61,987 nucleotides of DNA from an uncultured Desulfurococcaceae archaeon (GCA_964598805.1 CAZRDH010000071.1:1-61987); one strand, 5' to 3'. Positions 8,867 through 53,939 are shown, numbered from the stretch's first letter. A program made the numbers and translations. The notes: generated by a model not told the origin, from the letters alone.

Positions 8867-8889
8867 AGCTATCCCTTCTATTGATTAGG

Positions 8890-15633: not shown

Positions 15634-16067
15634 CCTCTCCCACCCTCCTTCTTCTTCCTATACTCTTCCGCTAGCTTCGTGTAAACCTCAACGACCTTCG
15701 ACAAGGGGGTTCCCGGCCCCATCACCTCGACGACGCCTAGCTTCTTGAGCTCATCGTAATCCTGAGGAGGTATCACTCCCCCGACTATCACCGGCACGTC
15801 TAGCCCGTGCTCGCGAAGCTTCTTCATCAAGTCCGAGATGAGCTCTATGTGCGAGCCCGAGAGAATGCTTATCCCTATGACGTCTACGTCCTCCTCGATA
15901 GCCGTTCTAACGACGTTTTCGGGGGTTTGGTGAACTCCTAGGTAGACAACGTCTAGACCAGCGTCTCTAAGCGCTCGCGCAACTACCTTAGCCCCCCTAT
16001 CATGCCCATCGAGGCCGAGCTTAGCTACGAGAACCTTTAGTTTCCTCCTTTGTTGGAGCTGGGACAT
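15630..16067 (-). CDS. Methylmalonyl-CoA mutase, B12-binding (C-terminal) subunit
   Basis: [12 protein letters not shown] carries the DxHxxG cobalamin-binding motif. Length is 145 aa. Confidence 0.9.
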
Positions 16068-16103
16068 GATCGACTTCGCCAGCTATGTGAAGCTCTTAGC
16101 TAG

Positions 16104-16110
16104 ATATAAA
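16104..16110 (+). promoter_or_regulatory. TATA-like box for meaB in the divergent 75-bp intergenic region
   Basis: ATATAAA lies 33-39 nt upstream of the GTG start at 16143. Confidence 0.35.
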
Positions 16111-16142
16111 CGTTCCGTGCCCTATGGGTGTAGGGAAGGAAC

Positions 16143-17084
16143 GTGAGTGCACGAGCCGTAGTGTTAAAGGCTATCGAGTCGAAGGATAGAAAGCTCATTG
16201 CTAGGGCCTTAACGTTGATAGAGGAGGGTCTATTCCACGAATTCTCGGATCTGATATTCGGCGAGCCTCACGCGCACGTAGTCGGGATTACGGGTTCTCC
16301 CGGCGTCGGCAAGAGTAGCTTGATAAACAAGTTGATACAGTTTCTTCGCAAGCTCGGTAAGAGCGTTGCTGTAATAGCGATAGACCCTGCTAGCCCGATA
16401 AGCGGCGCCGCGTTGATGGGTGATAGAGTGAGGGTGAGGACTCTAGATAGCGAAACGTTCTTTCGAAGCATTAGCACGCCTCCGGAGAAGGCCCTTCCGT
16501 TACACGCTGTGTTAATGGTGGAGTTCCTAGATAGGCTAGGCTTCGACTACATACTCATAGAGACCCCGGGGATTGGGCAAGTTAACGTCGATGTAACTAG
16601 GATAGCCCACACAACCGTCGTCGTGCTCCAGCCTGCAGCGGGAGACGAAATTCAGGCGCTTAAAAGCGGGATCATGGAGGTAGGGGATGTCTATGTGGTT
16701 AACAAGGCGGATATGCCTCACGCCGAGATAGCGGCTCTTCAGCTAGAAGCGATATTTGGAGGGGTCAAGAGGGGTGGTTGGAGCGTTAGGATCATAAAGA
16801 CGTGCACCTTTAGTGGTCGAGGCGTTGACGAGCTCGTTAAGGTTCTAGAGGAGCGATTGAACTACCTAAGGGAGAGCAACGAGTTTATGCGACGAGTAGC
16901 AGAGAGGAGGTGGTTCATAGTTGAGAGGCTGGTTCTCGAAGGCATTATGGATGAGATTAGCGAGGTCCTGAACAAGGCTAGAGATGAGCTTTCGACGCGC
17001 AGCGATTTGAATCCTATCGAGTTAGGGCGAGAGCTTCGTGAAAGAGTTCTTGTACACCTATGCTCTAACGCAAAGCAGTTTTAG
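16143..17084 (+). CDS. meaB: MeaB/ArgK-type G3E GTPase (MCM chaperone)
   Basis: P-loop GSPGVGKSS, ETPGIGQ and NKAD motifs. It is divergent from the MCM operon. Confidence 0.85.
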   Translation: MSARAVVLKAIESKDRKLIARALTLIEEGLFHEFSDLIFGEPHAHVVGITGSPGVGKSSLINKLIQFLRKLGKSVAVIAIDPASPISGAALMGDRVRVRTLDSETFFRSISTPPEKALPLHAVLMVEFLDRLGFDYILIETPGIGQVNVDVTRIAHTTVVVLQPAAGDEIQALKSGIMEVGDVYVVNKADMPHAEIAALQLEAIFGGVKRGGWSVRIIKTCTFSGRGVDELVKVLEERLNYLRESNEFMRRVAERRWFIVERLVLEGIMDEISEVLNKARDELSTRSDLNPIELGRELRERVLVHLCSNAKQF

Positions 17085-18932: not shown

Positions 18933-19009
18933 TGGTGGGCCCGCGGGGATTCGAACCCCGGACCACCCGGTTATGAGCCGGGCGCTCTACCGGGCTGAGC
19001 TACGGGCCC
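18933..19009 (-). tRNA. tRNA with CAU anticodon (elongator Met, or Ile2 if C34 is modified), genomically encoded CCA
   Basis: The reverse complement folds as a cloverleaf: GGGCCCG/CGGGCCC acceptor, GCUC/GAGC D stem, CCCGG-CUCAUAA-CCGGG anticodon arm, CGGGG-UUCGAAU-CCCCG T arm, then ACCA. Confidence 0.95.
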
Positions 19010-33438: not shown

Positions 33439-33969
33439 TCACCATGGAACCTCCTTGAGCTTCAACTTGTAGGCAACAACGTTAGTTGCGTAGTGGATTA
33501 CGGGGGTTATCGCGACTAGGAATAGCGCTTGGCCTAAGCTTAGGGTATACGCGTGGCCTAGGTAGGCGAACGCCATTGCGAAGAGTAGGAACGTTAGCTG
33601 GTCGAGCAAAGGCATCGGCTTGCCAGGAGCTAAGCCCATCCTTCGCTTAATGAATGAGCCTACGCAGTCCCCCACCATAGCCCCTACGGACAGTAGCAAG
33701 CCCCTCCACGTCCATAGCGAGGGGTTTCCGAACACAATGCCCTCGACGAACCCCGTAAGCGTACCTGTAGCCACTCCGCAGACGAACCCCTCGATGCTCT
33801 TGCTATCCCCTAGAACCCTCCTGCCGTCAACGAACTTCTTCCCGAAGTCTATTGGGTGCCTACGCTTAACGATCCTAGCCATCACCACGGGCGATCCGTT
33901 AGCTACGTAGGCCGGGAGTACGAATAGTACTGCCGATGCTAGCCACGAAGCCACGTTCATGAGCAGCAC
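33439..33969 (-). CDS. carS: CDP-archaeol synthase
   Basis: 176-aa 5-TM protein with PAYVANGSPV and GDSKSIEG motifs, typical of CarS (DUF46). Confidence 0.8.
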   Translation of the reverse strand: MLLMNVASWLASAVLFVLPAYVANGSPVVMARIVKRRHPIDFGKKFVDGRRVLGDSKSIEGFVCGVATGTLTGFVEGIVFGNPSLWTWRGLLLSVGAMVGDCVGSFIKRRMGLAPGKPMPLLDQLTFLLFAMAFAYLGHAYTLSLGQALFLVAITPVIHYATNVVAYKLKLKEVPW

Positions 33970-34733: not shown

Positions 34734-35369
34734 TTGCTGGTATCGGCGTTGTTAAGGGTTTACCACCTCGCGAAGCCGCTGACCGTAGCCCGATTCGCGG
34801 GGCTAAGGCTTTGCATACCCCGAGGCGTTTTCGATCCCCGGATCTCGATCTCAACGTCGCTAGTAATCGACTTCCTAACGAGGATCTCCCATCGGTTGAC
34901 AAAGGGCTTAGCGCTCGACATGGGGTGCGGCACTGGAGCCATAGGCATATTCATGGCTAAGTACCTCGGGTTTAGGGAAGTGCATTTCTTCGACGTAGAC
35001 CCGCGAGCCCTAGCGGTTACGAGGATAAACATCGATCTCAATGGCGTTAGCGATAGGGCTAAGGTTCTTAGGGAGCTAAACGACGATGTTCGCTACGATA
35101 TCGTTGTTACGAACCCCCCTTACCTCCCTCTAAGGCCTAGGGATCCGCTTGACTACTGCTGGTGCGGTGGAAGCGATTTAGAGATCTTCAAGCTGATGAT
35201 AGCGAGGGGAGTTCGCCTCCTCAGGAGGGGCGGGTTCCTAGTAACGACGTTCTCAACGCTATCTAGGTGCGCTTACTCCTACCTATCGACCATCTGTAGG
35301 AAGCTGGTTATCGGAGGCTCGCGTAGAACCCCCTTCGACGCTATATACGTAGCGATTTGCGTACCCTAG
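34734..35369 (+). CDS. NPPY-motif SAM-dependent methyltransferase (HemK/PrmC/Mtq2-like)
   Basis: DMGCGTGAIG (motif I) and VVTNPPYLP (motif IV). The track ORF starts at 34431, but that part overlaps the upstream gene and an sRNA. The TTG 34734 start is an estimate. Confidence 0.65.
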   Translation: MLVSALLRVYHLAKPLTVARFAGLRLCIPRGVFDPRISISTSLVIDFLTRISHRLTKGLALDMGCGTGAIGIFMAKYLGFREVHFFDVDPRALAVTRINIDLNGVSDRAKVLRELNDDVRYDIVVTNPPYLPLRPRDPLDYCWCGGSDLEIFKLMIARGVRLLRRGGFLVTTFSTLSRCAYSYLSTICRKLVIGGSRRTPFDAIYVAICVP

Positions 35370-36481
35370 CGTGAGGAAACAACAACTCTCCGCCTCGTCG
35401 CCTGCTTGAGGATTTCGAGCTCCTTCTCCCCGATGGTACCCGAGATAACCACCTTAACCCTATCGACTATTTCGCACTTAGCTCTAGAGCCTAGGAGCTC
35501 GAGGAGCTCGTTAACATCGCTCTCGCGAATCCTAGGCTCCTTGCTGTAGTCGCCGCAAGGTCCGTAGGAGCAAGCGGCGCAGTACTGCTCGTGGCTCCAC
35601 ACGTTGGCTTGGCAAGCTGATTCGAATACCGTAAATCCTAGGCTAGCAGCGTACTTCTCCACCATTCTCTTAATGTCTCCGCAGTTAATGGTTATCTGCT
35701 CTCGTGTGCTACGCGGTAGCCTAGGGGCTCGAGAAACTATTTTGGAAACGTCTATTCCGGCGCGACTCAGTCTCTCTAACACGCCCTTGGTTATTCTTAG
35801 CGAGCCCAGCACAACGCTCCTAATTCCCGCGCTCCACGCTCTCTCGAGGAGCTCCCTATACTCTTCCTCGATAATCCCCGGGATCAAGGGTCTTAGGAAT
35901 AGCGTTACCCTCAATCCGTGCTCAATGGCTATCCTAGCCCCTTCAAGCCTTTCGGTAGGTGGAGGAGCCCTAGGCTCGAGAACGCTGTGCCTCTTCATCG
36001 TAACTATCGTTACGAGAACGCTAAGTTCCTCGTCGCAACTCGCTAACCTGCTAGCGATTTCGTGGCTTAGAACCATCTTCGTCGATACTTGGCAAGGGAG
36101 TGATAGGTACCGTCGAATGAGCTTCATGCACTCGATCGTGTACGCCGCAGTGTTAGGGAGAAAGGGCTCTACGACCGATCCAAAGGCTGCAAAGGTGCGT
36201 TCGGGAACTACGTAGGGGTTGAGCGCTATCGCTAGAGCTAGCTCCGCCGGCTTGAGCTTGTACGGCGCGTCAATGCGCGGGAACCCCATGTCTATGGCGT
36301 AGCAGTAGAGGCACGCGTTAGTACAGCCTAGCCCCGTATGTATAGTCATTCCGCATGGACGGGGCTTGCGACGGCTATGGTGATCGCTTTTAGCGCGCAC
36401 GAACCCCTCTTCGCCTACTAGAGCCCTAAGCTCTTCAATAGCCTTGTTCTTCCTCTCGATGAGCGATGCAAGCCATCCCAA
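35366..36481 (-). CDS. Radical SAM protein (SplB/COG1533-like)
   Basis: GCTNACLYCYA carries the CxxxCxxC motif. TTG start, 371 aa. Confidence 0.75.
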   Translation of the reverse strand: MGWLASLIERKNKAIEELRALVGEEGFVRAKSDHHSRRKPRPCGMTIHTGLGCTNACLYCYAIDMGFPRIDAPYKLKPAELALAIALNPYVVPERTFAAFGSVVEPFLPNTAAYTIECMKLIRRYLSLPCQVSTKMVLSHEIASRLASCDEELSVLVTIVTMKRHSVLEPRAPPPTERLEGARIAIEHGLRVTLFLRPLIPGIIEEEYRELLERAWSAGIRSVVLGSLRITKGVLERLSRAGIDVSKIVSRAPRLPRSTREQITINCGDIKRMVEKYAASLGFTVFESACQANVWSHEQYCAACSYGPCGDYSKEPRIRESDVNELLELLGSRAKCEIVDRVKVVISGTIGEKELEILKQATRRRVVVSSR

Positions 36482-36640: not shown

Positions 36641-37573
36641 ATGCTTTTCAAGGCGATCGAGCAAAAGCTCATTGATAGCGGGCTACTCGTCGAGAAGGAG
36701 TACGAGCTCAAGATGATAGTCGCTAGCTTGGTGGCTGAAGGCCACGTGCTGCTCGAAGGCGTGCCGGGGGTGGCTAAGACCTCCATGGCTAAAGCCGTGG
36801 CCAAGCTCCTTGACCTAGAGTTCAAGAGGATTCAGATGACCCCCGATCTCCTCCCCATGGACATCATAGGGTTCTACATGTACGATCAGCGCACCGGGGA
36901 ATTCAGGCTTAGGAAGGGCCCGATATTCACGAACATACTCCTTGCTGACGAGATAAACCGTGCGTCTCCACGAACTCAATCTGCTTTGCTAGAGGCTATG
37001 CAGGAGAGGCAGGTTACTATTGAGGGTAATACTCTTGTTTTGCCTAGGCCGTTCATGGTCATCGCTACGCAAAACCCAATAGAAATGGAAGGAACATTCC
37101 CACTACCAGAAGCACAACTAGATAGATTCCTAACGAAGATCGTTACGGGCTATCCGAGCCCAAAGGGATTTAGAGACTTGCTGAAGAGGATCGACGAGAT
37201 TGAGGCAGGTATAGAGAGCCTTAAGCCCGTTGTTTCGAGAGACGAAGTTCTTAAAGCTATCGAGGCCGCTAAGAGCGTTCGCGTAGACGATAGTATAATC
37301 GACTACATAGCGTCGATCGTAGAGGAAACGCGTAGCCACCCCGCAGTTAAGCTAGGTGGATCGCCACGAGCAGGCATAGCGATGCTGAGACTTGCTCGGG
37401 CATGGGCTTACCTAAGTGGTAGGAACTACGTTATTCCGGACGATGTGAAGGCCGTAGCTAAGCCAGCCCTGATACACCGAATAATACTGAAGCCAGAGTA
37501 CGAGATAGAGGGCGTTACTCCCGAACGCGTCATAGACGACATCCTCAAGAAGGTTCCGGTGCCCAAACCTTGA
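36641..37573 (+). CDS. moxR: MoxR-class AAA+ ATPase
   Basis: Walker A GVPGVAKT, Walker [10 protein letters not shown], plus [20 protein letters not shown]. Confidence 0.9.
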
Positions 37574-38616
37574 TGAAGGTTAAGCCCGTAGCGAAGATCT
37601 GCTCGGCGGTTGCGCTCCTAGTCACGATCTTAGCGACAACGCAATTAGTGTCGGTACTCGCTGAAGTTGACGAGGGGTGGCCATGGCCCTTTCCAAGGCA
37701 TAGCATAGGGTTTCCGCAAATCCTTAATGAGTCTATGCTTAACGAACTCGTGAAGTACTTGGAGGTACGGGGAGCACGGGTTTCGCCGCTGAACGCATCT
37801 ACTTCGGGCGCTGGGTACATACCTAAGGAGCTGGTATCGGAGGTAGCGTCTAGGCTAGGCGTTTCGCCTAGCTACATAGAATCCGTAATCAAGTCCGTGA
37901 ACGACGAAGAAACTAGGAGAATGCTTATCACCTTGCTACGTAGCTACGCTAATGGTCAGTTAAGCGTTAGCCAGCTACTTCAATTCCTCAAGCAGCTAGG
38001 CTCCAGAGCTTCGTCTGGGCAGCTTAGTGTTAGCGCTTACGAAGCCACGCTAGACTTAGTGAAGAGAATTAGCGAGTCGCTGAAGATAAACTTTAGCGAA
38101 GTTTATCAGCTAGCCCAAAAGAGCTGGTCCATACCTAGGTACCTATCGTCGCTATTGGGAGGCGCATCAATCGCTATGCCAACGGGCTTCTCATTGCCAT
38201 CGGCATCCCTCTACGGGCTTAAGGACGTTGGGATAGCCCTCGCCGCAACGTTTATAGCGATCGCGATAGCGATAGCCTTGATCGCGATCCTACGCAAGAT
38301 TAAGAGCGTTACGGCGCTGAGCTCGCGGTCCATACGCAGGGTCTTGGGGACGTACTTCGCTGAGGGCGTTGTGCGCGAATACTGGAGGGCTGTGCAATTA
38401 ATTAGCGCTAAGCTAGGGATATCGAGAATGGATTGGGAGACCCATTGGGAGTTCTTCGCTAAGGTCTCTAAGTACTTAGGTAGCGCTTCAGAGGCATTTC
38501 GAAGGCTAACCGAGCTATATGAGCTTCGGAGATTTGGAGGCGTTAAGCTTCGCGACATGGATGAGGAGGCTAGGAGATGTACCGAGGTGGTTAAACGGTG
38601 CCTAGAGTCAATGTGA
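37570..38616 (+). CDS. Membrane protein with a DUF4129-like C-terminal domain (tentative)
   Basis: Signal/TM helix, extracytoplasmic domain, TM helix ([20 protein letters not shown]), then REYWRAV...WETHWEF...[13 protein letters not shown] overlap with moxR. Confidence 0.45.
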
Positions 38617-39707
38617 GGCTACTCCTCGAGCTCGCTCCACGAATAATCGCGTTGCTCTTGCTCTGGAGCTACATACCCAGCTTACTCTCAATCGCGTCGA
38701 CTTTCACCCTCTACCTCACGCTCTCGCCACTTATCGTAAAGCCGTTGCTGACGCTCACGGTATCGATCCTAGCAGTGATAACCATAGCTACAGCGAGCCC
38801 CTTGCTGTACTCTGTTACCGTAGTGTTGTCGATGGTCTTAGCCCTCTACACGCACTCAATGCCATCCATAGCGATTTCGGTAGTTGGTCTTGTAGCGCTC
38901 CTAGCTCTAGACACTCTCAAGTTTACGTACCGGCCTAAGCAAGTAGTTCGGGGCCTTGACCTCAAGCGAATTCTAGCGTCTATTGCCGCGATCATGGTCG
39001 TAACGGCGGCGTTGTGCATCTTACCCTCGAGTTACGTAGCTACCTTAGTGAACGGGTTGGTGAAGTACCTTAGCGAAGCCCCGAGCATCGTGTTGAGGTT
39101 GCTGGGTAGCAACCCCATCTTCGTATTGATACTCTCGATAGCTATCACGATAGCCCTCTACAAGATCGTGACCAACATCTTCGACATCGTAGCCCTATTC
39201 GCGCTTCCCTCGAGGGAGCTAGCGTTACGCGCTTTAACGATGGATAAGGTGCTTAAGGCATCGATAGAGGCCCCCCTAAAGAACCTTAAGGTTCTCGTAT
39301 TGGCTAGCCTCATCGCCCCACCCCTCTATGCCGTAGTCGCGAGAGTGTTGCTCCCCCTAGTAGTTAGCTACGTACCGTTCCTAGCGACCTTGCTATACAC
39401 TAAGTTAGGGACTATAGCCCTCATCATCATAATGTACCTTCTCTCCATAGCGATCGTGAGGCCCATCGTAACGCAGCTATCGGTTAATCCAGGGCGCGTA
39501 CTAGCATTATCGCTAACACTACTAGCGCTAATCTACGTCAGCGGGGTCGTGTTATCGCTGTACGTAACTAACGACCTGTGGTTCTCAATTACGCATCCCC
39601 GACTAGATCTCGTGGGCAACGAGATGGCGAGAGTCTACGTAGGTTTCTACACCCAATTCTTCTATATACTCGAGGACCTAATGCGTATGATAGGTGCAGC
39701 GCCTTGA
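38598..39707 (+). CDS. Polytopic membrane protein (about 9-10 TM)
   Basis: 369 aa, almost entirely hydrophobic helices, overlapping the upstream gene. Confidence 0.5.
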   Translation: MPRVNVRLLLELAPRIIALLLLWSYIPSLLSIASTFTLYLTLSPLIVKPLLTLTVSILAVITIATASPLLYSVTVVLSMVLALYTHSMPSIAISVVGLVALLALDTLKFTYRPKQVVRGLDLKRILASIAAIMVVTAALCILPSSYVATLVNGLVKYLSEAPSIVLRLLGSNPIFVLILSIAITIALYKIVTNIFDIVALFALPSRELALRALTMDKVLKASIEAPLKNLKVLVLASLIAPPLYAVVARVLLPLVVSYVPFLATLLYTKLGTIALIIIMYLLSIAIVRPIVTQLSVNPGRVLALSLTLLALIYVSGVVLSLYVTNDLWFSITHPRLDLVGNEMARVYVGFYTQFFYILEDLMRMIGAAP

Positions 39708-39721
39708 AAACCTGGATAAAG

Positions 39722-39928
39722 ATGGTCGTGTACATGGCCGTGGGGACGGCACTATTCGCGCTATCCATACTGTTCTTCCTATGGAGCGTTGGATTCATGC
39801 AGCACGCAATGGTTGCATCCTCTCTGCTATCAGCGCTAATCGGATTCTCGCTACTTTCAGGCTCCCTGTACATGTTTAGGCTATCAGCCTACATCTACGG
39901 GGTAGAGAAGGGTGGTTCCAGAGAGTAA
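39722..39928 (+). CDS. Small 2-TM membrane protein
   Basis: MVVYMAVGTALFALSILFFLW... The ATG at 39722 is chosen because the longer track ORF overlaps the previous gene. Confidence 0.3.
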   Translation: MVVYMAVGTALFALSILFFLWSVGFMQHAMVASSLLSALIGFSLLSGSLYMFRLSAYIYGVEKGGSRE

Positions 39929-41339
39929 GGATGCGGACGTTAAGTACAAGCTCGTTTCGGGATCGATAATAGCGGTCTTAGTGCTAATAGCTTTGATAGC
40001 CCTCGTCGCTAAGGGACCTCCAGCAATCTACCTCTACACCGGACCTACACCGCTAAACCAAGCGGCGCTAGGAACATCGCAGCTAGTGATACTGCTTAGG
40101 CACGAATACCCATTAACCATACCCGTCGAGAGCCTAGAGGATTTAGCTAGGTACGCTCGCGGAGAGCACTGCCTATTCATAGTAGTATCTCCTCAAGTAG
40201 AGATTTCGCGTAGCGACGCACACGCGATCGTTAGCTACTTGAGGAACTGCAAGCACTACGCCTTGCTCATAGCCGACGAGTCTAGGTACTCAAATAACTT
40301 GATAGAGGCTTTCGGTGCTCACACCCTCGTCGAGGGATCGATAGTTCTGAACGCCTCTAGCAAGTCCCCTTACCCCTACGCCGTATTCAATTTGCGAGGC
40401 GAAGTCATTGAGGTGAGGCTGGATATAGCGTCATCCCTATCTACGTGCCCTACGCTCCTTGGCTACGTTAGCAACGCCCTAATCCTCTACCCCAACAAGC
40501 CCCCTACCCTATCGAGAAGGGCTTGCATAGCAACGTATGAAAAGCGGGGTTCTGGAACGATAATCGTTGTAGGGGACGGCTCTCTATTCCTAAACCAGGT
40601 TTTAACGAGCTCTAGCGGGTCTAAGTACCGAGAGCTAATACTAAAGCTAGTTTCGATGCTATGCAATAACGATAGAGCGTGTAGGATCTTCGTAGACGCC
40701 ATTCACTACAAGGCGATTTCCCCTATCGAGGTCCTTAGGAATCCATCCATTGCTAAGTACGTGGATCCCTTCTCCCTCGTTCCAGCGCTAATAGCGTACG
40801 TAGTTCACCCAGCTACGTGGCTACCCCCAGCCCTAGAGCTAGCTAATAGATTCGTTACCTTCGTGTTCTCTAACTACGCTACTGCCGCTCTAGCAGCGCT
40901 AATAGCGATACTCATTTCCTACGCCGTGGCCAAGAGGCTCCTAGGCTCCGGAAGGGATGTTAGATTAATGCCGCAGCTAGAGTACGGCTCCGTATTCTCA
41001 ACGGAGCTTCACGACGCTATCGCTAGGGGTAGATACGCGTTTACGAAGGAGGACTTCGTGAACCTGTACTCCCTCGTCGATGAAGCGCTGAGGTCCGTGC
41101 TAGGCATAAGCCTTTCGGATCCTCAATGCGTAGACATCTTGGCTAAGTACATTGGTTCGGAGCGCGCTCGCAGGTTCGTAAGTACAATGAATTCCTATCT
41201 AGCTAAGGCTAGGGGCGAGAGGTTTCTACCCTTGGTACTCTCGTGGAATAGAGTTGTGAAGCGTATGCTTAGGGAGTCCGAGGAGGTGCTCAACGCTCTA
41301 GGCTCATCAATTGCAGAAAGGAGGGCGGTTCGCCTATGA
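39912..41339 (+). CDS. Membrane-anchored protein, DUF4350-like (tentative)
   Basis: N-terminal TM helix, large external domain, second TM helix (ATAALAALIAILISYAVA) and a cytoplasmic tail. The position between MoxR and DUF58 is typical. Confidence 0.4.
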   Translation: MVPESKDADVKYKLVSGSIIAVLVLIALIALVAKGPPAIYLYTGPTPLNQAALGTSQLVILLRHEYPLTIPVESLEDLARYARGEHCLFIVVSPQVEISRSDAHAIVSYLRNCKHYALLIADESRYSNNLIEAFGAHTLVEGSIVLNASSKSPYPYAVFNLRGEVIEVRLDIASSLSTCPTLLGYVSNALILYPNKPPTLSRRACIATYEKRGSGTIIVVGDGSLFLNQVLTSSSGSKYRELILKLVSMLCNNDRACRIFVDAIHYKAISPIEVLRNPSIAKYVDPFSLVPALIAYVVHPATWLPPALELANRFVTFVFSNYATAALAALIAILISYAVAKRLLGSGRDVRLMPQLEYGSVFSTELHDAIARGRYAFTKEDFVNLYSLVDEALRSVLGISLSDPQCVDILAKYIGSERARRFVSTMNSYLAKARGERFLPLVLSWNRVVKRMLRESEEVLNALGSSIAERRAVRL

Positions 41340-42676
41340 GGGGCTTAACGGAGTTAACCCACGTAGAGCCTACCCATAGGCTAGCTGCGCTCACTCTACT
41401 TGCTTCAGCGTTCGTAGCGCTATCAATATTCAATCGCAACACGCTGGCTATAGGCATAGCTCTGTTCCTCTTGATAGCTTGTTGCCGCGGAATGGTGACT
41501 ATCGAGGCTAGCGCTATTACCCGATGCAGTTTTAGCATAGAGGTGGTTGGGCGTAGCGAGGACGAGGAGCTTAGGGTTAGGGTGCGCATCGAGAATCGTA
41601 GCTTAGCGATAATACCCTTCGCCGAGATCTCGATAGAGCACTCACCGCATTTAAGGCTCGTAAAGGGATCCAAAGTGGTTTTAGCGACGATACCGCCTAG
41701 GTCTAGCATAGTCGTAGAGCTCTCGTTCGATCCTAGGGTTGGTAAGCATTGGATAGGGCCCGTAACGATCGTAGTGCGCGATCCTCTAGGGCTCTTCCGA
41801 AGCCAACCGATTAAGGTAAACGTCGTTAAGGAGGTCATGATAACGCCTCGCGTTAGCGAAGCCCAGCTACGCAGGATACTCGTTAAGACTAGGAGTAGTG
41901 GGGTAGTACGAAGTAGGGAGCCGGGAACGGGCGTGGAGTTCTTTAGCGTTAGGGAGTATAGGCCTGGGGATGATTTGAGAAGAGTTGATTGGAAGCACTT
42001 CGCCGCAACCTCTAGGCTCGTCGTGAAGGAGCTCGAACGCGAGACTTTTCAAAGCGTGGCCTTCGTTATCGACGCTACCTCCCCTACGCTCCTAGGCCCC
42101 CGAAAGAGTACGCCGCTAGAGCACGTACTTAGGATAGTATCATCGCTATCGCTATACCTATCACGGCGCGGAGACCTGCAGATGGTTTTGGTATACAGCA
42201 AGCGTGGCGTTACGTGCTCTAGGCTTGTTCGCGGTAGGAGCGCGTTTAAGGAGGTTCTAGGGGTCTTATCCTCGATAGAGCTCGACACCGAGGAAACGAG
42301 TGAGGAGGATAGGTGTCGAGCTCTTAGTGAAGCCGTTAAGAAGCTCGTTTCTGCGCTACCTCGAGAGAGAAACGTCGTGTTCATGTTCACCGTTAGTGGA
42401 GGCGATAGGTATCTAGACGCGTTGGTGAAGGCGATAACCACGATCTCGTCGCTAGGAAATGTTGTGTACGTAGTGCTACCGCTAGCAACCCTCTACCAGG
42501 AGCAGGACTTGCCTAAGTGGGCTAGGCTCGTGTTTAGGGTTAAGGCGTACGAGGCGCTGAAGAGGGAGGAGAGCTTCGCTAGGAAGTTGAGGTCGAAGGG
42601 AGTGAAAGTAGTGGTATCGCTCCCGCAGTACATACCGATGACCATTGCGAGCATCATTGAGCGAATGGCTGCCTAA
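41336..42676 (+). CDS. DUF58 (vWA-like) protein, MoxR partner
   Basis: EFFSVREYRPGDDLRRVDWKHFA is the DUF58 signature. Two N-terminal TM helices and an ATGA overlap. Confidence 0.8.
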   Translation: MRGLTELTHVEPTHRLAALTLLASAFVALSIFNRNTLAIGIALFLLIACCRGMVTIEASAITRCSFSIEVVGRSEDEELRVRVRIENRSLAIIPFAEISIEHSPHLRLVKGSKVVLATIPPRSSIVVELSFDPRVGKHWIGPVTIVVRDPLGLFRSQPIKVNVVKEVMITPRVSEAQLRRILVKTRSSGVVRSREPGTGVEFFSVREYRPGDDLRRVDWKHFAATSRLVVKELERETFQSVAFVIDATSPTLLGPRKSTPLEHVLRIVSSLSLYLSRRGDLQMVLVYSKRGVTCSRLVRGRSAFKEVLGVLSSIELDTEETSEEDRCRALSEAVKKLVSALPRERNVVFMFTVSGGDRYLDALVKAITTISSLGNVVYVVLPLATLYQEQDLPKWARLVFRVKAYEALKREESFARKLRSKGVKVVVSLPQYIPMTIASIIERMAA

Positions 42677-47147: not shown

Positions 47148-47762
47148 ATGTTGTACAGAACCGCTACCCCCAGACCGTGGGATAAGGCATTCAATCTAAC
47201 GATCCTTAGGTACCTATGGAGGTTTCGCGATAGCATCCTAGGGGTTTACTACATACCTAAGCTCGGGAGCGTGGTCCCGGTTCTGAGGGTCGATACAGAG
47301 CTTCCGCCAAGGTTCTTCGTGAAGATCGATGAGTCCGTGCTTCGCAATAGCTATAGAATGGTGTGCTTGAGAGGATGCGGCGCGTGTTGCGAAGTGAATG
47401 CCGGCGTGTTCATGTTCGAGGAAGAGCTGGAGGAAGTGAGTAAGTTCGCTAAGCGCAGCGTTGTTCCATCGATGTGCGAAACCGTAACGCTACTCAATGG
47501 CGAGGTCGTGAAGGTATGTAGCTTGCCTAGGGGTAGGTGCCCATTCTACGACCCTCTCTCCCGATCGTGTACGATCAACGAGGTTAAGCCCATTATTTGT
47601 CGAGTGCATTACTGCACTCTCGTTGCTGAGCGCAACGGCGTTCTCTACTACAAGAAGCGCGGTCGGCGCGGAAAGCCGGTCTACGTTCCGTGGAGGGGGA
47701 GCGTTAGCGAGCTAACGGAGATCGTTAGGAAGAGCGTTTTGGCGCTAGCTAAGATAGCTTAG
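47148..47762 (+). CDS. YkgJ-family Cys-cluster (CxxCxxCC) protein
   Basis: CLRGCGACCEVN plus later Cys residues (RCPFYD, SCTIN, CRVHYC). Confidence 0.65.
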   Translation: MLYRTATPRPWDKAFNLTILRYLWRFRDSILGVYYIPKLGSVVPVLRVDTELPPRFFVKIDESVLRNSYRMVCLRGCGACCEVNAGVFMFEEELEEVSKFAKRSVVPSMCETVTLLNGEVVKVCSLPRGRCPFYDPLSRSCTINEVKPIICRVHYCTLVAERNGVLYYKKRGRRGKPVYVPWRGSVSELTEIVRKSVLALAKIA

Positions 47763-49303
47763 TCGATTTGGATGCCGAGGGCCTTGAGCATTAGCTCCTG
47801 TATCGATTCGTTGGATATGCTTAGCCCTAGCTCGTCGCTAGCTTCAGCAAGCTGGATGCGGCACGTTGGGCACGCGTGTGCGAGTACTTGGGCGTTAGGC
47901 GGTAAGTCCTTTCTAAGCCTCTCGACGCCAACAGCTAGCGATAGCCTCGGGTTGGCTATTCTGAGGTTGCCGCCGGCTCCGCAGCACTGAGCGTAATCGC
48001 GTCTTCGCTTCATCTCCTCGAATTCCTTAACTACGCTCTCTATGAGGAACCTAGGCTCCTCGTAAATCCCTTCGTGCCTACCCAGATCGCACGGGTCGTG
48101 GTACGTAGCGACTACGGGTAGCTTAGACTCGATGCGTATCACACCCTTGTTAACCAGCTCGTAGAGTAGTTGCGTAGCGTGAACGATCTCGATATCCCTG
48201 AACTCTACGCCGAGCTCGGGATAGATGGTCTTCATCATGCGGTAGCAGCTAGGGCACGGCGTAACGATCATTTCCACGCCTAGGGAGCGAATCTCCTCTA
48301 CATTCCTCTGGGCTACGCGTCGAGCTTCTTCGTGGGCTCCGGCTAGGTACAGCGGCATTCCGCAGCAATACTCCTTCTCACCTAGGACCACGTACTTAAT
48401 CCCCGCGACCTCGAGGAGCTTAGCTAGAGCCCTAACGCTCTGCTTATCGACGTAGCTAGCCATGCAGCCAGCGAATATCAGAACCTTACCCTCCCCACTA
48501 GGGGCTAAGCCCTTAACCCAATCCCCGCGCTCCTCCCTAGGCATCCACAAGGGGTTACCGTAGTCAGGGTCCATAACGCTCTCAACAGCATCCTTGATTT
48601 TCAGCGGGGCTAACCCCCTTCTCCAAGCCTCCTTGCGCAGCTCGATAACGGCCTTCCCAACATCGATTTCCTGAGGGCATACCGCGGTACAGGCGTCGCA
48701 CACCATGCACTCGTAGAGCCCTTCGTTAACGACCATTCCCAGCCTATCTAGGGAATCCCTAGGATCGAGCTCTCGCTCAGCAACCATCCTAAAGGCTAGA
48801 GCTCCACCAAACCTCCTATCCAATTGCTTTAGGGGGCACGTAGCTAAGCACGAAAGGCATAGAGAGCACTTTCGGTAGCTCATTACGTTTAGCGCATCGT
48901 CCTTCGAGAGCTTCTCGGGCGGTATGTACGGCTCACTGCGGTGGATCCAGTACCTATACCTATCGATTGCATCGAGTACGCGTGACCTATCTACGACTAG
49001 GTCCTTTAAGCGCGGAAGAAGCCATAGGGGCTTGATCACTAGCTCGTTACCGAGGCACTTCACGATCTTGAGCACGCTCGTAGAGCACGCCGGTAGAGCA
49101 ACATCGTTGACCATGACCGCGCACGAACCGCAAACGCCTCTACGGCAGCTATACGGAATGGCTATCGTCGGATCGAGCCTCTCTATCTGTATCAGCACGT
49201 CTAGGAGCGTACTCCTTTCATCGGCTTCCACCACAAACCACTCTATTCGAGGCTCCGTATCCTTAAGCGGATCGAACCTCTCTATACCTATCCTAAGCCT
49301 CAA
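47759..49303 (-). CDS. tfrB: TfrB-like subunit: SdhB-type FeS domain fused to an HdrD/GlcF-type double CCG domain
   Basis: 2Fe-2S CRRGVCGSCAVMVNDVALPAC, then CSLCLSCLATCP and CMVCDACTAVCP. Two CCG modules follow (YCCGMP...PCPSC, then DPCDLGRH...QCCGAGG...CPTC). The TTG at 49303 overlaps the tfrA stop as TTGA, and the track ORF extends to ATG 49387. Confidence 0.8.
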   Translation of the reverse strand: MRLRIGIERFDPLKDTEPRIEWFVVEADERSTLLDVLIQIERLDPTIAIPYSCRRGVCGSCAVMVNDVALPACSTSVLKIVKCLGNELVIKPLWLLPRLKDLVVDRSRVLDAIDRYRYWIHRSEPYIPPEKLSKDDALNVMSYRKCSLCLSCLATCPLKQLDRRFGGALAFRMVAERELDPRDSLDRLGMVVNEGLYECMVCDACTAVCPQEIDVGKAVIELRKEAWRRGLAPLKIKDAVESVMDPDYGNPLWMPREERGDWVKGLAPSGEGKVLIFAGCMASYVDKQSVRALAKLLEVAGIKYVVLGEKEYCCGMPLYLAGAHEEARRVAQRNVEEIRSLGVEMIVTPCPSCYRMMKTIYPELGVEFRDIEIVHATQLLYELVNKGVIRIESKLPVVATYHDPCDLGRHEGIYEEPRFLIESVVKEFEEMKRRRDYAQCCGAGGNLRIANPRLSLAVGVERLRKDLPPNAQVLAHACPTCRIQLAEASDELGLSISNESIQELMLKALGIQID

Positions 49304-50988
49304 GGTCTCAACCTCGTGATCCTCACGGGCTCGAAGAAGGTCTTTAGAACCCCGTTCTCGAGCTTTACCACTACGTGCTTTAGCCACTCGCTATCGTTTC
49401 TACTCGGGTAGTCCTCGCGGTAATGAGCACCCCTAGACTCCTTCCTAACGAGAGCGGAAATCGCTACGGATTTAGCGACTAGAACCATGTTCACGGTCTC
49501 TAAAGCCCTTAGAGCATCGATTGAAAAGCCCTTGCCCTGCTCCACCCCCATGCACTTAGCTAGCGCCTCAACCTTCTCGAGCTCCTTAACTAGCTCCTCG
49601 AGCTCGCACCCCCTCCTAATGACCCCCGCGTACCTCCACATGAACTTTCGGAGCCTCGACCTAACGACTTCGTACCCAATGACCCTCTCCCTATCCCTCG
49701 ATAGAATGCTTCGAACCCTATCGATAGCCCTCTCAACGGCTTCTCTATCAACGCCTCGAATCCCCGTACCCAGCGCGTAGCTAGAAGCGCTACTACCAGC
49801 CCTCCTACCGAAGACCAGTCCATCGGCTAGCGAATTCCCTCCAACCCTATTGGCCCCGTGGACTCCTCCAGCAACCTCGCCGCACGCGTAAACTCCCTTA
49901 ACGCTCGTCGACGCATTGACGTCTATAGAGATGCCGCCCATGAAGTAGTGAGCCGTTGGAGCTACCTCTATGGGTTCTCGACAAATGTCTATGCCTAGCC
50001 TCTTTAGGAACCTGTAGGTGGACTCCAAGCGCTCGCGAATCCTTTCGCAAGGCACGTGGGTGATATCTAAGTAGACACCCCCGTGGGGAGTACCCCTACC
50101 CTCGCTAACTTCTCGCCATATGGCGCGCGCAACGACATCCCTACCAGCGAGCTCCATTTCCTTAGGCGCGTAGCGCTTCATGAACCTCTCGCCGCGGGAA
50201 TTGAGTAGGATACCGCCCTCGCCCCTCACGGCCTCGGTTATTAGCAGGCCTCGAGCCGATTCTGGGTACGCTAAGCCCGTTGGGTGGAACTGCACCATCT
50301 CCATGTCCTTCAGCTCGAGGCCTAGCCTAAGGGCGAGGGCGTACCCATCACCCGTAGACTCCATTGGAACCGTGTTCACCTCGTATATCTGCGCGGCGCC
50401 GCCCGTAGCCAGGATCACTGCCTTGCACCGATATACTTCGGGCTCCCAGCTCTTCGTATTCCAAGCCACTACGGCTGCAGCCGAGGAGCCTACGGAGTCC
50501 TTAATCACGTCGCTAACGAACCTATTCTCCACTATCTGCACGCCTAGGCTCTTAGCAACGCTTAGGAGCGTCGTAACGATTTCGTGCCCAGTCCTATCAG
50601 AGGCGAAGCACGTTCTCCTCCGGCTCTGCTTACCGAACGCCCTTTGCGCGATAAGCCCTTCGTCAGTTCGAGAGAATACCGCTCCCCACTCCTCGAGCTC
50701 GTACACGCGATCAATGATCTCCTTGCAGAGCACCTCGACTAGATCCTGATCGTTTAGGAAGGCGCCAGCCGTAACGGTGTCCACGAAGTGCCTTTCCCAA
50801 CTATCATCCTTATCCACGTTGCATAGAGCCGCGTTAACGCCTCCTTCAGCCATGATCGAGGCGCTACACGTAGCCCGCGTCTTGGTTAGGATGACGACCT
50901 CGAGACCGCGCTGCGCTACCTCTATGGCTGCTCGTAACCCAGCTACCCCGCTACCAATAACGACAACGTCTGTAGAGATCCACTCCAT
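49300..50988 (-). CDS. tfrA: Fumarate reductase/succinate dehydrogenase flavoprotein, TfrA-like
   Basis: VVVIGSGVAGLRAA (FAD), HPTG, RGEGG, AHYFMGGI and GANRVGGNSL motifs. The covalent-FAD histidine position reads TCSASIMAEGG (Ala in place of His). Confidence 0.9.
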   Translation of the reverse strand: MEWISTDVVVIGSGVAGLRAAIEVAQRGLEVVILTKTRATCSASIMAEGGVNAALCNVDKDDSWERHFVDTVTAGAFLNDQDLVEVLCKEIIDRVYELEEWGAVFSRTDEGLIAQRAFGKQSRRRTCFASDRTGHEIVTTLLSVAKSLGVQIVENRFVSDVIKDSVGSSAAAVVAWNTKSWEPEVYRCKAVILATGGAAQIYEVNTVPMESTGDGYALALRLGLELKDMEMVQFHPTGLAYPESARGLLITEAVRGEGGILLNSRGERFMKRYAPKEMELAGRDVVARAIWREVSEGRGTPHGGVYLDITHVPCERIRERLESTYRFLKRLGIDICREPIEVAPTAHYFMGGISIDVNASTSVKGVYACGEVAGGVHGANRVGGNSLADGLVFGRRAGSSASSYALGTGIRGVDREAVERAIDRVRSILSRDRERVIGYEVVRSRLRKFMWRYAGVIRRGCELEELVKELEKVEALAKCMGVEQGKGFSIDALRALETVNMVLVAKSVAISALVRKESRGAHYREDYPSRNDSEWLKHVVVKLENGVLKTFFEPVRITRLRP

Positions 50989-50991
50989 GAA

Positions 50992-51426
50992 CTACCTTCC
51001 CTTCTTAACCCCCCTCCTCCTAATGTCCTCCTCCATCCTCTTCAACGCCTCGGAACCCGTCACTAAACCCTTCAACCCTTCCTCTAGGTTCGAAGGCCTT
51101 AACCTAGCTATCCACGATCCGTATGGATCCCTGTTTATCAGCACGGGCCTACGAATAACGTCCTGGTTTATCTCAACGATGGTTCCATCGAGTGGGGATG
51201 GTAGGGGCCCTACCCACTTAACGGATTCCAGCATAGCGACGGGCTCGCCCTTCTTAACGAAGGTTCCCGGGGGCTTCGGCTTGACGAACACTATCCTCCT
51301 CGCTAGGTACTGCCCCACGTCGTCTAGCCCGATTAAGACCTCCGAATCAACTACCTTGACCCACACGTGGTTATCGACATCGTAGTACAGATCCTCGCGA
51401 ATTTCGAATCCCTCGATTATAGCCAC
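50992..51426 (-). CDS. gcvH: GcvH-family lipoyl-carrier protein
   Basis: VAMLESVKWVGPLPSPLDGTIVEINQDV...INRDPYGSWIARL matches the GcvH core, including the ESVK lipoyl-lysine. GTG start. Its stop lies 3 nt before the tfrA start. Confidence 0.8.
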   Translation of the reverse strand: MAIIEGFEIREDLYYDVDNHVWVKVVDSEVLIGLDDVGQYLARRIVFVKPKPPGTFVKKGEPVAMLESVKWVGPLPSPLDGTIVEINQDVIRRPVLINRDPYGSWIARLRPSNLEEGLKGLVTGSEALKRMEEDIRRRGVKKGR

Positions 51427-51462
51427 GCTCTACACCTTGCCTAGAAATGATTTAGGCGGGAT

Positions 51463-51470
51463 CTTTTAAG
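51463..51470 (-). promoter_or_regulatory. TATA-like box upstream of gcvH-tfrA-tfrB
   Basis: The minus strand reads CTTAAAAG, 37-44 nt upstream of the GTG start at 51426. Confidence 0.3.
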
Positions 51471-51486: not shown

Positions 51487-52626
51487 CTAGCGATAATCTA
51501 GAACGCTTTCTATGACAGACCTCAGCAACCTCGTTGAATCCGGGGGTAGCCACGCACCAGAGCTAGGTATAACCTCCTTGAACGCTATACACGGTATTCC
51601 GAACCTAGCTCCAGCACCTCTCTTACTCACGATAACGTCGCAGAGCTCTGCTCCCACGCTCGTCGCGAGCTCGTTCACGTAGTTAACTAGCTGCGGTAAC
51701 CGATCGAGTCTCCAAAAAGCATTCACCATTAAGTAGCTAGTGGATAGCGATATCCCTACAGCCCCCACTAGCGGGTGCATAACGAGAGCCTTGCCCAGCT
51801 TCACGATCCTAGAGTCCCTACCGCTAATAACGAAGAGCACCGATACGTCCGTTAACTCCCTTAACCTACCTATGTACAGAATCCTCAAGCCCTTCACGAA
51901 TGACGAGCACTGATTCGAGACATGTATCGCTAATCTACGCGCATTGCTTTCATCTACGCTAGCACCTCCCGCCCTCATTTCCTTCATGAAGAAGCTCACT
52001 ACCTCGCTCATCTTAGGCAGCGGATTGTTCTCGTATTGAGAGAGGAAGAGCAGGAGCTCGTACGAAATACTTCCTCCGTACCCCTTAGTCTCTATAGTAC
52101 TATCCACTCTATCTAGGTACTCGCTAAGAATCTTCTCTAGCGACTCCGTAGTAACGAAGTACTCTGGCTTGCTTAGAACCTCCTTTATGTACCTCCAAAG
52201 CTCAAATCTATTCTTCAACTTGTACTCGACAATGTATAGGCCCTCGCCCACGAGCTCGCGAGGTACATCACCTACTCGAGGAAGATACAGCGTGATCGCT
52301 ACGCCCCTGGGCATTAAGGGGGCTATGCTCCTAACGAAGGGAGGAGCCCGAGGAAGGCTAACGTTCTTAAGCTTGGCGTTGCGGAGTACAGCTATAGCTA
52401 GCTGCAACCTTAGCGCAGGGAGATCGAGTTCCGCGGTTAGCTTCATTATGCGTTGCATCGCTAGCTCTCGAATCTTCTCTAGGTAGCGTCGAGCGTTGCT
52501 AAGCGTTGTGCCTAGAGCCTTAGAGAGCTCGCGGCATGCCTTAGCGAACACGATGTTCTTAATCTCGTAGATGTGCTGAAGGATTCTAGTTACGCTAAGT
52601 AGCGAGCTAACGTCGTTCTTAGCCAT
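51487..52626 (-). CDS. Hypothetical protein with an N-terminal HTH-like segment
   Basis: ACRELSKALGTTLSNARRYLEKI looks like a helix-turn-helix. 379 aa with no other motif. Confidence 0.4.
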   Translation of the reverse strand: MAKNDVSSLLSVTRILQHIYEIKNIVFAKACRELSKALGTTLSNARRYLEKIRELAMQRIMKLTAELDLPALRLQLAIAVLRNAKLKNVSLPRAPPFVRSIAPLMPRGVAITLYLPRVGDVPRELVGEGLYIVEYKLKNRFELWRYIKEVLSKPEYFVTTESLEKILSEYLDRVDSTIETKGYGGSISYELLLFLSQYENNPLPKMSEVVSFFMKEMRAGGASVDESNARRLAIHVSNQCSSFVKGLRILYIGRLRELTDVSVLFVISGRDSRIVKLGKALVMHPLVGAVGISLSTSYLMVNAFWRLDRLPQLVNYVNELATSVGAELCDVIVSKRGAGARFGIPCIAFKEVIPSSGAWLPPDSTRLLRSVIESVLDYR

Positions 52627-52697: not shown

Positions 52698-53939
52698 TTA
52701 GCCGACTTGGTAGAGCAGTACGTATATACCTATCAGCACGAGTAGGATCCCCGAAACTACTGAGAGCTTATCGCTGTTCTCAATGATGAATCTCTGTACC
52801 GCCTCGAGCTTAGAGATCGATGCTACTGCTAGGAGTATGGCTATCATCGGCGATACGAATACTAGGTTGTATAGTAGTACTAGCGGAATGAATGACTCTA
52901 GCCCTAGGTTTCTAGCAATCGATACGAAGACTACGTAGGGTCCCGCTGAACATGGTAGGAGGGTGAATGTTACGAGTAGTCCTAGGGCGAAGGATAGGGT
53001 CGCGGACGTAGCTGCTCTAGGCACGTAGTTGAATACGAAGCCCTTCCCCAAGATCCTACTCTTCCTAGCGAGCCCCGAGGCTATGGTCCAAGCGCCGAAC
53101 CCTATGGCTATGGCCGCCGCTATCCTCGAGTAGATGGGTACCATCGACAGCGCCTTCAGCAAGCCGAAGCCGAGCGCTACGTAGCCTACGTAGACTGCCG
53201 ATATGAATGCTAGCCCAACCGCAACTACGTTGCGAAGCGCCGAAGGCTCGCTACGCGTGAAGGAGTAGGCGGAGAGGGCTGCCGCTAGTAGGAGAACTAC
53301 GTAGAGGTACAGTGCGCACGGGTTTATCGAGTCGCTTAGCGCTAAAGCAATGACTAGGGGTATTACGGAGGTGGTTTCACCTAGCTGCGTACCGATGATA
53401 TTGGCACCGCTCTTGAGCTTTACGACGCGCCCCTCGAATACGATGCTAGAGCCGCTAGCATTGAATAACTCGGGTGCGACACTCACCGTGAATCGCTTTA
53501 GCGCGGTTTCGTTGCTGAACTCGAGGTACTCAATCAAGCTGGTTCCCGCGTAGACGGGCACCCTCAGGCTCGCATTGCTCTTAACTAGCTCGATCCAGAA
53601 CTTAGGGGAATCCACCTCTCCAACGACCACCGCTTTAACGCAGTTTCCGCATATTACGAGCGTTAGGGGAACTACGGGCGTTAACCCGATGATTCGGTAT
53701 ATCGCTAGCAACCTCTCCCGACACTCATTGCAAACCCTAACGTTGCAGAAGTACACGCTTTTACAGCCAAAGGTTTCGTCGAGTAGCTTGTGCAGAGCGC
53801 TGCAGTGCGGGCACGTATCCATGCCGTACATGTACAGCACGACGCTGCCTCTCGACGACGCGTGCAGCGCTACGCTCGTGGCGCACAGCGTGAGCACTAT
53901 CGTCGCCAGAAGCATTATCGCTAGGCAACGCCTCTGCAA
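52698..53939 (-). CDS. Thioredoxin-like (CPHC) ectodomain fused to a CcdA/DsbD-type thiol-disulfide transporter
   Basis: Signal helix, MDTCPHCSALHKLL, a middle domain, then 6 TM helices carrying DSINPCALY and LLPCSAGPY (the conserved CcdA Cys pair). Confidence 0.7.
   Translation of the reverse strand: MQRRCLAIMLLATIVLTLCATSVALHASSRGSVVLYMYGMDTCPHCSALHKLLDETFGCKSVYFCNVRVCNECRERLLAIYRIIGLTPVVPLTLVICGNCVKAVVVGEVDSPKFWIELVKSNASLRVPVYAGTSLIEYLEFSNETALKRFTVSVAPELFNASGSSIVFEGRVVKLKSGANIIGTQLGETTSVIPLVIALALSDSINPCALYLYVVLLLAAALSAYSFTRSEPSALRNVVAVGLAFISAVYVGYVALGFGLLKALSMVPIYSRIAAAIAIGFGAWTIASGLARKSRILGKGFVFNYVPRAATSATLSFALGLLVTFTLLPCSAGPYVVFVSIARNLGLESFIPLVLLYNLVFVSPMIAILLAVASISKLEAVQRFIIENSDKLSVVSGILLVLIGIYVLLYQVG

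Follow-up and report, generated by a model that had tools for sequence, protein, structure and literature searches.

A conserved lipoyl-carrier gene beside a TfrAB-type fumarate reductase suggests a dihydrolipoyl-protein:fumarate oxidoreductase in an uncultured archaeal clade

Introduction

Which molecule donates electrons to the soluble fumarate reductases of archaea? The question is raised by a locus on contig CAZRDH010000071.1 (GCA_964598805.1; 61,987 bp, complete), which belongs to a metagenome-assembled genome (MAG) of an uncultured Desulfurococcaceae archaeon and is referred to here in its full length as the window. On its minus strand, between positions 47759 and 51426, three tightly packed genes follow one another in the order gcvH-like, tfrA and tfrB. 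The first encodes a single-domain lipoyl carrier with the fold of the H-protein of glycine cleavage (GcvH), and the other two encode a flavoprotein and an iron-sulfur (Fe-S) subunit resembling methanogen thiol:fumarate reductase (TfrAB). We give a probability of roughly 55% to the trio being an operon for a soluble dihydrolipoyl-protein:fumarate oxidoreductase. This function had been suggested in an original prediction made from the window alone, and it is now supported, by way of gene order and sequence, by the conservation of the trio, the affinity of the carrier to the lipoate-binding proteins (LbpA) of sulfur oxidizers, the catalytic character of the CCG domains in TfrB and an alanine (Ala43) at the flavin attachment site of TfrA.

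The archaeal fumarate reductase of the reductive C4 branch, with which the trio was compared by description only, has a natural redox partner described as not known, and in 2025 the natural partner of the fumarate reductase of the CO2-fixing dicarboxylate/4-hydroxybutyrate (DC/HB) cycle was listed as unknown (PMC12794621). A gene for a putative nucleotide-disulfide oxidoreductase comes next after FrdAB in Pyrobaculum neutrophilum. No publication tying GcvH or LbpA to TfrAB or to a fumarate reductase was found in our search, outside which most subscription journals lay.

A tightly packed and conserved gene trio

The carrier gene (50992-51426, minus strand; 144 amino acids [aa], GTG start; Pfam GCV_H at 1.2e-32) ends in a TAG, after which only three nucleotides (nt), ttc, precede the ATG of tfrA at 50988 (49300-50988, minus strand; 562 aa). 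The tfrA stop codon (TGA, 49302-49300) overlaps the TTG start of tfrB (49303-49301; whole gene 47759-49303, minus strand; 514 aa), the junction being read as TTGA with a gap of -4 nt, and both details of this packing agree with what had been predicted. We accept the TTG as the tfrB start because it fits the Pfam Fer2_3 domain, which starts 4 residues past it, and because the public record holds exactly the 514-aa TTG-start protein; the longer 542-aa open reading frame (ORF) with a GTG start is not on record. A TATA-like element, cTTAAAAGa (51462-51470, minus strand), was read directly, and its core TTAAAAG (51469-51463), a putative promoter element, lies about 40 nt upstream of the carrier GTG. 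Similar A/T-rich hexamers are found about 38 to 45 nt upstream in four of the related loci described below (L001, L003, L172 and L173). No TATA-like element occurs in the 70 nt before tfrA or tfrB, so that the box stands ahead of the first gene only, as originally claimed. A GGTG Shine-Dalgarno-like motif (51436-51433, minus strand) is located 6 nt ahead of the carrier GTG. The three genes are probably cotranscribed as one operon. That the ORFs might be artifacts was considered and rejected, as all three exact products are on the public record and the carrier is strongly conserved.

The close relatives all come from MAGs labeled Crenarchaeota or Thermoprotei archaeon, and no cultured organism, including Thermoproteales or Desulfurococcales, is found among the close homologues. 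Inside this clade, identity is 59 to 100% for the carrier, 58 to 78% for TfrA and 45 to 68% for TfrB, compared to at most 47%, 52% and 36%, respectively, outside it. Seven clade loci were examined (the window, L001/L002, L003/L004, L171, L172, L173 and L176), and all of them have the same gene order, gcvH-like, tfrA and tfrB, with a spacing of -4 to +34 nt between the genes; this includes L176, which had been picked as a possible counterexample. The seven loci represent six genomic contexts, with only the window and L001 being syntenic and the other flanks all different, and TfrB identity among them goes down to 43%. By contrast, a gcvH-like gene was found at none of 22 non-clade full-length TfrB loci among the matches listed (Methanobrevibacter, Methanomethylicia, Bathyarchaeia, Promethearchaeota and Nitrososphaeria; relatives at ≤36% identity), and none stands beside tfrA-tfrB at the nearest outgroup loci (L174 and L175, Nezhaarchaeota). 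The adjacency put forward for checking is thus conserved within one uncultured Thermoprotei-like clade and does not extend to other TfrAB-bearing archaea. A naive hypergeometric test on 7/7 versus 0/22 gives a p value of about 6e-7 without allowing for shared ancestry; a stronger reason not to put the adjacency down to chance is that the trio was kept while its flanks were fully reshuffled. In nearly all pairwise comparisons, the carrier is also more conserved than TfrB (51 to 83% versus 43 to 63% identity), and the identity of a carrier pair correlates with that of the corresponding TfrA pair (r = 0.75) and TfrB pair (r = 0.56), which indicates that the carrier is a selected and coinherited part of the operon.

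A fumarate reductase with a catalytic-type CCG module

TfrA carries the Pfam domains FAD_binding_2 (8.7e-104) and Succ_DH_flav_C and passes TIGR01812. Its fumarate-site residues are present (QFHPTG, TEAVRGEGG, LAGRD, PTAHY and HGANR) and align with Escherichia coli SdhA (1nek_A). Where SdhA has the histidine that covalently binds flavin adenine dinucleotide (FAD), TfrA has Ala43 (codon 50862-50860; TCSASI versus TRSHTV), as had been noticed from the sequence. The position is Ala in 16/16 clade TfrA and His in 73 other close TfrA homologues, the nearest outgroups included, while methanogen-type TfrA (RSGCT; e.g., Methanopyrus) is also devoid of this His. In E. coli FrdA without covalent FAD, the flavin potential is lower and succinate oxidation is abolished, but fumarate reduction is kept. 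The TfrA of this clade probably favors fumarate reduction as well.

Two groups of homologues depart from this pattern. Fourteen TfrA homologues of about 517 aa from Bathyarchaeota-like MAGs (P0194, P0216-P0220, P0224 and others) align only from MAEGG onward and are without some 45 residues at the N terminus, among them the dinucleotide-binding GxGxxG segment; this could be due to miscalled starts or a split gene. The Nezhaarchaeota-type TfrAB (L174:5290-8641 and L175:1875-5204), which adjoins malic enzyme, retains the covalent-FAD His and shows D-C for C-C in the first CCG domain, recalling the loss seen in EtfD (see below). It may be a different kind of enzyme both from methanogen Tfr and from that of the clade studied here.

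In TfrB, an SdhB/FrdB-like N-terminal half (48629-49303, minus strand; Pfam Fer2_3 and Fer4_8), whose residues 1 to 226 match SdhB/FrdB structures in the PDB at 1e-25 to 1e-17, carries a [2Fe-2S] motif (C53/C58/C61/C73) and two four-cysteine motifs (C146/C149/C152/C156 and C199/C202/C205/C209). It is fused to two Pfam CCG domains, both on the minus strand, the first at 48245-48466 (C280, C313, C314, C350 and C353; YCCG ... PCPSC) and the second at 47861-48091 (C405, C440, C441, C478 and C481; YHDPC ... QCCGAGG ... ACPTC), and the predicted fusion is therefore real. The cluster cysteines and those of the CCG domains are invariant in the clade alignments.

CCG domains can serve for catalysis or for simple electron transfer. 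The best solved-structure match of the C-terminal half (Fer4 and two CCG domains) is mycobacterial EtfD (9OJN, 7e-40), and the second CCG domain also aligns with HdrB (5odc_B and 9sfi_C). The CCG clusters of EtfD are noncatalytic, as one Cys of the first CC doublet has been lost and His583 caps the second cluster; EtfD is also membrane bound, contains heme and has a linear [3Fe-4S] cluster in its first CCG domain (PMC13083937). TfrB retains the CC doublet and, as in HdrB, has Ser (CPSC) at the site of the EtfD histidine (CPHC) that blocks the catalytic iron. The catalytic-type signature of 5+5 Cys is present in all clade loci. Judged by these residues, the CCG module of TfrB is of the catalytic HdrB type and not an electron wire of the EtfD type.

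In its flavoprotein and Fe-S halves, the enzyme is a typical member of the Sdh/Frd type, and CCG subunits occur in type-E succinate:quinone oxidoreductases as well as in the quinone-reducing EtfD. This would allow a type-E-like succinate dehydrogenase whose CCG module docks to the membrane and passes electrons to quinone, the gcvH-like gene being unrelated. We regard it as very improbable, since it would leave the conserved carrier gene unexplained and has to contend with the missing covalent-FAD His, the Hdr-type CCG signature and the fusion of the CCG domains to the Fe-S subunit. Neither a hydrophobic segment in TfrB or the carrier, nor an SdhC/D-like membrane-anchor gene adjacent to the trio in the window, nor an SdhF/SdhD-like partner or any further conserved subunit gene corresponding to the type-E small partner at the seven clade loci was found. 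The enzyme is accordingly predicted to be soluble, and the absence of an adjacent membrane anchor stands as it had been reported.

The same features are those of the methanogen enzyme (Methanothermobacter; EC 1.3.4.1), a two-subunit soluble TfrAB in which TfrA has no covalent-FAD His and TfrB fuses an SdhB-like [2Fe-2S] part and two four-Cys motifs to two CCG domains, so that the TfrAB-type architecture assigned to the locus is well founded. TfrA and TfrB have indeed their best NCBIfam matches in methanogen TfrA (NF004900, 638.2 bits) and TfrB (NF004898, 296.9 bits), both, however, under the equivalog cut-offs (718 and 385), and the donor proposed here is an intramolecular dithiol on a protein, where the methanogen enzyme uses two free coenzymes. 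Donation by a small thiol (CoM-SH/CoB-SH or another low-molecular-weight compound) or by ferredoxin, with the gcvH-like gene located there for another reason such as a lipoyl relay, regulation or redox buffering, has to be weighed at this point. Ferredoxin has been hypothesized as the donor of archaeal fumarate reductases (PMC12794621), and two clade members have genes of tetrahydromethanopterin (H4MPT) or methyltransferase metabolism beside the trio (the C1-carrier genes MTD and MCH in L171 and MtrH in L176). The original prediction had set coenzymes M and B aside on the ground that crenarchaea do not make them, which is too general, as some Thermoproteota are methanogens (PMC6421429). On the other hand, we saw none of the CoM, CoB or mcr genes in the window, the non-clade TfrB loci without a GcvH-like gene include those of Methanobrevibacter, Methanomethylicia and Bathyarchaeia, and a carrier gene that stays tightly coupled, and better conserved than TfrB, across six contexts is hard to reconcile with a bystander. 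We therefore consider a small-thiol or ferredoxin donor unlikely.

An LbpA-like lipoyl carrier

Lys70 of the carrier (codon 51219-51217, in the motif ESVK) aligns with the lipoyl-lysine of the solved H-proteins 1onl and 1dxm and is invariant across 18 relatives, which bears out the lipoyl-lysine recognized beforehand. The carrier is thus probably lipoylated on Lys70. It nevertheless misses both NCBIfam GcvH cut-offs (NF002270, 109.3 versus 117; TIGR00527, 68.9 versus 115.85), as do the clade carriers P0021 and P0016 and two LbpAs from sHdr clusters, while canonical GcvHs from the same search (P0041 and the second gcvH of L007) pass easily. The lysine is followed by W-V-G-P (ESVKWVGP) where canonical GcvH reads K-A-x-S-D, and the pattern K[WYF]xG is common to the carrier and to sHdr-linked, Asgard LplA-linked and bacterial CCG-linked relatives. 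The isoelectric point (pI) is 7.9 for the window carrier and 6.6 to 9.3 for the clade carriers, which have a basic C-terminal tail, versus 4.3 to 4.6 for canonical GcvH. In a neighbor-joining (NJ) tree (141 columns, 300 bootstraps), the TfrAB-linked carriers form one clade (85% bootstrap), and the sister of these carriers plus P0023, a GcvH-like protein, is P0025 (85%), a Caldarchaeum LbpA encoded in a DsrE-LbpA-LplA-TusA/Hdr-like cluster. Among other non-clade relatives, P0028 is encoded directly 3' of HdrA-like and HdrB-like genes and P0027 adjoins LplA. By tree position, scores and motif, the carrier groups with the LbpA type rather than with canonical GcvH, which was one of the placements that the original prediction had left for checking; on these sequence traits, it is LbpA-like and not an ordinary H-protein.

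Two GCV_H genes are found tail to tail beside NAD kinase at L007:4985-5832 and L008:1170-2017, one with K-W-V-G-P (P0023, 59% identical to the window carrier) and the other canonical (K-A-V-S-D), passing the GcvH cut-offs. The presence of P0023 beside a separate canonical gcvH indicates that the two carrier types coexist as distinct paralogues.

These data bear on whether the carrier is simply an H-protein whose glycine cleavage system is encoded at another site, with TfrAB replacing the L-protein and fumarate replacing NAD+. Such a reading is a special case of the dihydrolipoyl-protein:fumarate oxidoreductase that also names the reductant. The GCV_H fold with its intact lipoyl-lysine is compatible with it, as are the C1-carrier genes of L171 and L176, and the large energy release of the fumarate step would help to drive glycine cleavage. 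H-protein and trio also share a single lipoyl domain, a swinging-arm lysine and a flavoenzyme that reoxidizes the dihydrolipoyl group, although the proposed oxidant differs (fumarate through Fe-S clusters versus NAD+ through a disulfide flavoprotein). Against it stand the sub-cut-off scores, the KWVGP motif and neutral-to-basic rather than acidic character of the carriers, the pairing in L007, and the absence of gcvT, gcvP and lpd from the 62-kb window and from the 7- to 8-kb flanks of six relatives; moreover, bacterial LbpAs are unable to replace GcvH (PMC6067878). We judge this alternative improbable, about on a par with the small-thiol or ferredoxin donor.

The affinity to LbpA brings in sulfur oxidation. 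The sHdr-LbpA systems (Hyphomicrobium denitrificans and others; PMC6067878) likewise combine a GcvH-like lipoate-binding protein with a CCG-containing HdrB-like Fe-S partner, and share with the trio the K[WYF]xG motif and the sub-cut-off GcvH scores. Because the NJ sister of the carrier is an sHdr LbpA, its nearest relatives are located in sHdr clusters and the sample settings, judged from record names, are hydrothermal, the carrier might present sulfane sulfur to the CCG site, with fumarate as the anaerobic acceptor. However, DsrE, TusA, rhodanese, HdrA-like and HdrC-like genes were found at 0/7 loci, whose kind is reported to accompany sHdr-LbpA systems in every case (PMC11094781). LbpA typically has two conserved cysteines near the N and C termini, some archaeal LbpAs excepted (PMC6067878), whereas the window carrier has no cysteine at all and none is conserved in the clade carriers. 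The lack of cysteines speaks for a plain dithiol/disulfide function and against the carriage of sulfur, and with a fumarate reductase as its partner, the lipoyl group probably carries electrons and not sulfur. We hold the sHdr-like alternative to be highly unlikely.

Proposed reaction and its difficulties

In the dihydrolipoyl-protein:fumarate oxidoreductase that we favor, lipoate would be borne on Lys70 of the carrier, and the reduced dithiol arm would swing into an HdrB-like site that the two CCG domains of TfrB make up. There, oxidation at two noncubane [4Fe-4S] clusters would turn the dihydrolipoyl group into the cyclic disulfide, by the same chemistry that methanogen TfrB applies to CoM-SH plus CoB-SH. 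The two electrons would travel via the SdhB-like clusters of TfrB to the noncovalent FAD of TfrA, which would reduce fumarate to succinate. The lipoyl group might then be rereduced by the P and T proteins of glycine cleavage, by a dihydrolipoamide-dehydrogenase-like enzyme with NAD(P)H or by another enzyme. Given a potential near +30 mV for the fumarate/succinate couple and one near -290 mV for lipoamide, succinate formation would be the only direction open to the enzyme. Both the physical interaction of the carrier with TfrB and this direction of electron flow are what we infer from the features above.

The neighborhoods of the trio in other clade members agree with a lipoyl-dependent reductive C4 step. 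In L176 (8567-9700 and 13692-15548), a lipoate-protein ligase gene (LplA-B_cat) lies convergent and directly after tfrB, and class I fumarase subunits and malic enzyme are encoded within a few kilobases. In L173 (2311-3826), a fumarase gene adjoins the trio. In L172 (8526-9020), an OsmC-family gene on the same strand overlaps the 3' end of tfrB. OsmC/Ohr peroxidases use dihydrolipoyl groups as a reductant, and the lipoyl carrier may have the OsmC protein as a second partner in L172. A Flavin_Reduct gene is also present near the trio in L171 and L176.

Several points weigh against this proposal. The energetic rationale is weak, as a soluble enzyme that reduces fumarate with a -290 mV dithiol squanders about 60 kJ/mol, and none of the trio loci encodes a reductant of the lipoyl group in its flanks. 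The lipoylation gene for which the original prediction had suggested looking is there in L176, but LplA occurs near the trio in only that one of the seven loci, and no lipoylation gene is present in the 62-kb window. P0023, at 59% identity to the window carrier, occurs without TfrAB. The carrier could also serve glycine cleavage, and CCG modules can be plain electron wires, as they are in EtfD, the best PDB match of the TfrB C terminus. Finally, all cases of the adjacency come from MAGs and may go back to one ancestral event.

Bacterial loci with a similar layout

TfrB-alignment scans of genomes and metagenomes brought up 138 HdrD/GlcF-like CCG loci among the matches listed, 36 of which have a GcvH-like gene on the same strand (at ≤300 nt in 20). 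Among these matches, LplA is present in 9 to 10 of the 36 loci with a gcvH-like gene versus 3 of 124 without. In Sporomusa silvacetica DSM 10669 (NZ_CP155573.1; L044:3238-11848), the cluster starts with two LplA-type genes followed by genes for a GcvH-like protein and a GlcD-like flavoprotein, and continues with a Fer4+2xCCG protein, a second GcvH-like protein, LplA, a GGR-family flavoprotein and a LipS2-like radical SAM protein. The best NCBIfam match of the bacterial CCG protein is the C-terminal part of TfrB.

Similar clusters were observed in L017, L046, L050, L063, L097, L107, L108, L110 and others, the hosts being anaerobic bacteria that include Chloroflexota, Deltaproteobacteria/Desulfobacterales and Sporomusa. 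They combine a FAD_binding_4 GlcD-like flavoprotein, a Fer4+2xCCG protein that is either separate (about 400 aa) or fused (about 820 to 880 aa), and one or two K[WYF]xG GcvH-like proteins, often with LplA, a GGR-family flavoprotein and a LipS2-like radical SAM protein. The catalytic CCG signature was tried as a predictor of gcvH adjacency and discarded, since it is found in 31 of 32 adjacent proteins but also in 115 nonadjacent ones, i.e., in most of them, and has no discriminating power.

The bacterial loci thus share with the trio a flavoprotein, a catalytic-type 2xCCG Fe-S protein and a K[WYF]xG carrier, and differ from it in having their own LplA and LipS2-like genes and a flavoprotein of the FAD_binding_4 (2-hydroxyacid oxidase) type. 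The latter suggests that the bacterial system probably works in reverse, from substrate to lipoyl. The independent recurrence of this layout strengthens the functional reading of the archaeal trio and suggests a broader principle.

Other genes of the window

The window encodes CdvA and a Vps4-type ATPase (6772-9582) together with a CDP-archaeol synthase (33439-33969), which identify the genome as one of the Thermoproteota ("crenarchaeal"). A cluster at 13517-17084 contains the methylmalonyl-CoA mutase large subunit, an epimerase of the glyoxalase fold, the B12-binding small subunit and a MeaB GTPase; this pathway connects succinyl-CoA with propionyl-CoA in the genome that also encodes the fumarate reductase. 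Upstream of the trio and on the same strand, a 379-aa ORF (51487-52626, minus strand), separated from the carrier gene by a 60-nt gap, has no Pfam or NCBIfam match and is syntenic only in L001. Two genes upstream of the trio, a 413-aa protein (52698-53939, minus strand), likewise without a Pfam or NCBIfam match, has an N-terminal thioredoxin-like C-P-H-C and about seven hydrophobic segments with PC motifs, reminiscent of CcdA/DsbD transporters; it is conserved in L001 and absent from the other clade loci. Radical-SAM genes, one at 35366-36481 in the window and others beside the trio in L171 and L173, were checked as candidates for LipS1/LipS2 and turned out to be neither. At 36641-42676 (plus strand), a MoxR-type AAA_3 ATPase is clustered with DUF4129, DUF4350 and DUF58 proteins in a typical MoxR/DUF58 module. 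A single tRNA-Met (CAT; 18933-19009, minus strand) is the only Rfam/ARAGORN match on the contig.

Implications

Protein-bound lipoate has so far been assigned to 2-oxoacid dehydrogenases, glycine cleavage and sHdr sulfur oxidation. What the comparative genomics of this one uncultured clade suggests as new is a TfrAB-like enzyme with a protein-bound dithiol partner and an LbpA-like carrier outside the sHdr context. More tentatively, and with rather less confidence than we place in the archaeal enzyme itself, catalytic CCG modules could be general docking and oxidoreduction sites for K[WYF]xG lipoyl proteins. Lipoate would then be a widespread two-electron carrier in anaerobes, linking three settings, TfrA (this archaeal clade), GlcD-like enzymes (Chloroflexota, Desulfobacterota and Sporomusa) and sHdr (sulfur oxidizers), and would be the donor for soluble fumarate reduction within the reductive C4 branch of this archaeon.

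If the proposed reaction is true, protein-bound lipoate would have the further role of simply supplying electrons to an Fe-S/flavin reductase, and, taken with the bacterial loci, the partnership of CCG and lipoyl proteins would be far more general than sulfur oxidation. For the soluble fumarate reductases of archaea, the operon points to a concrete and testable donor, a lipoylated carrier protein.

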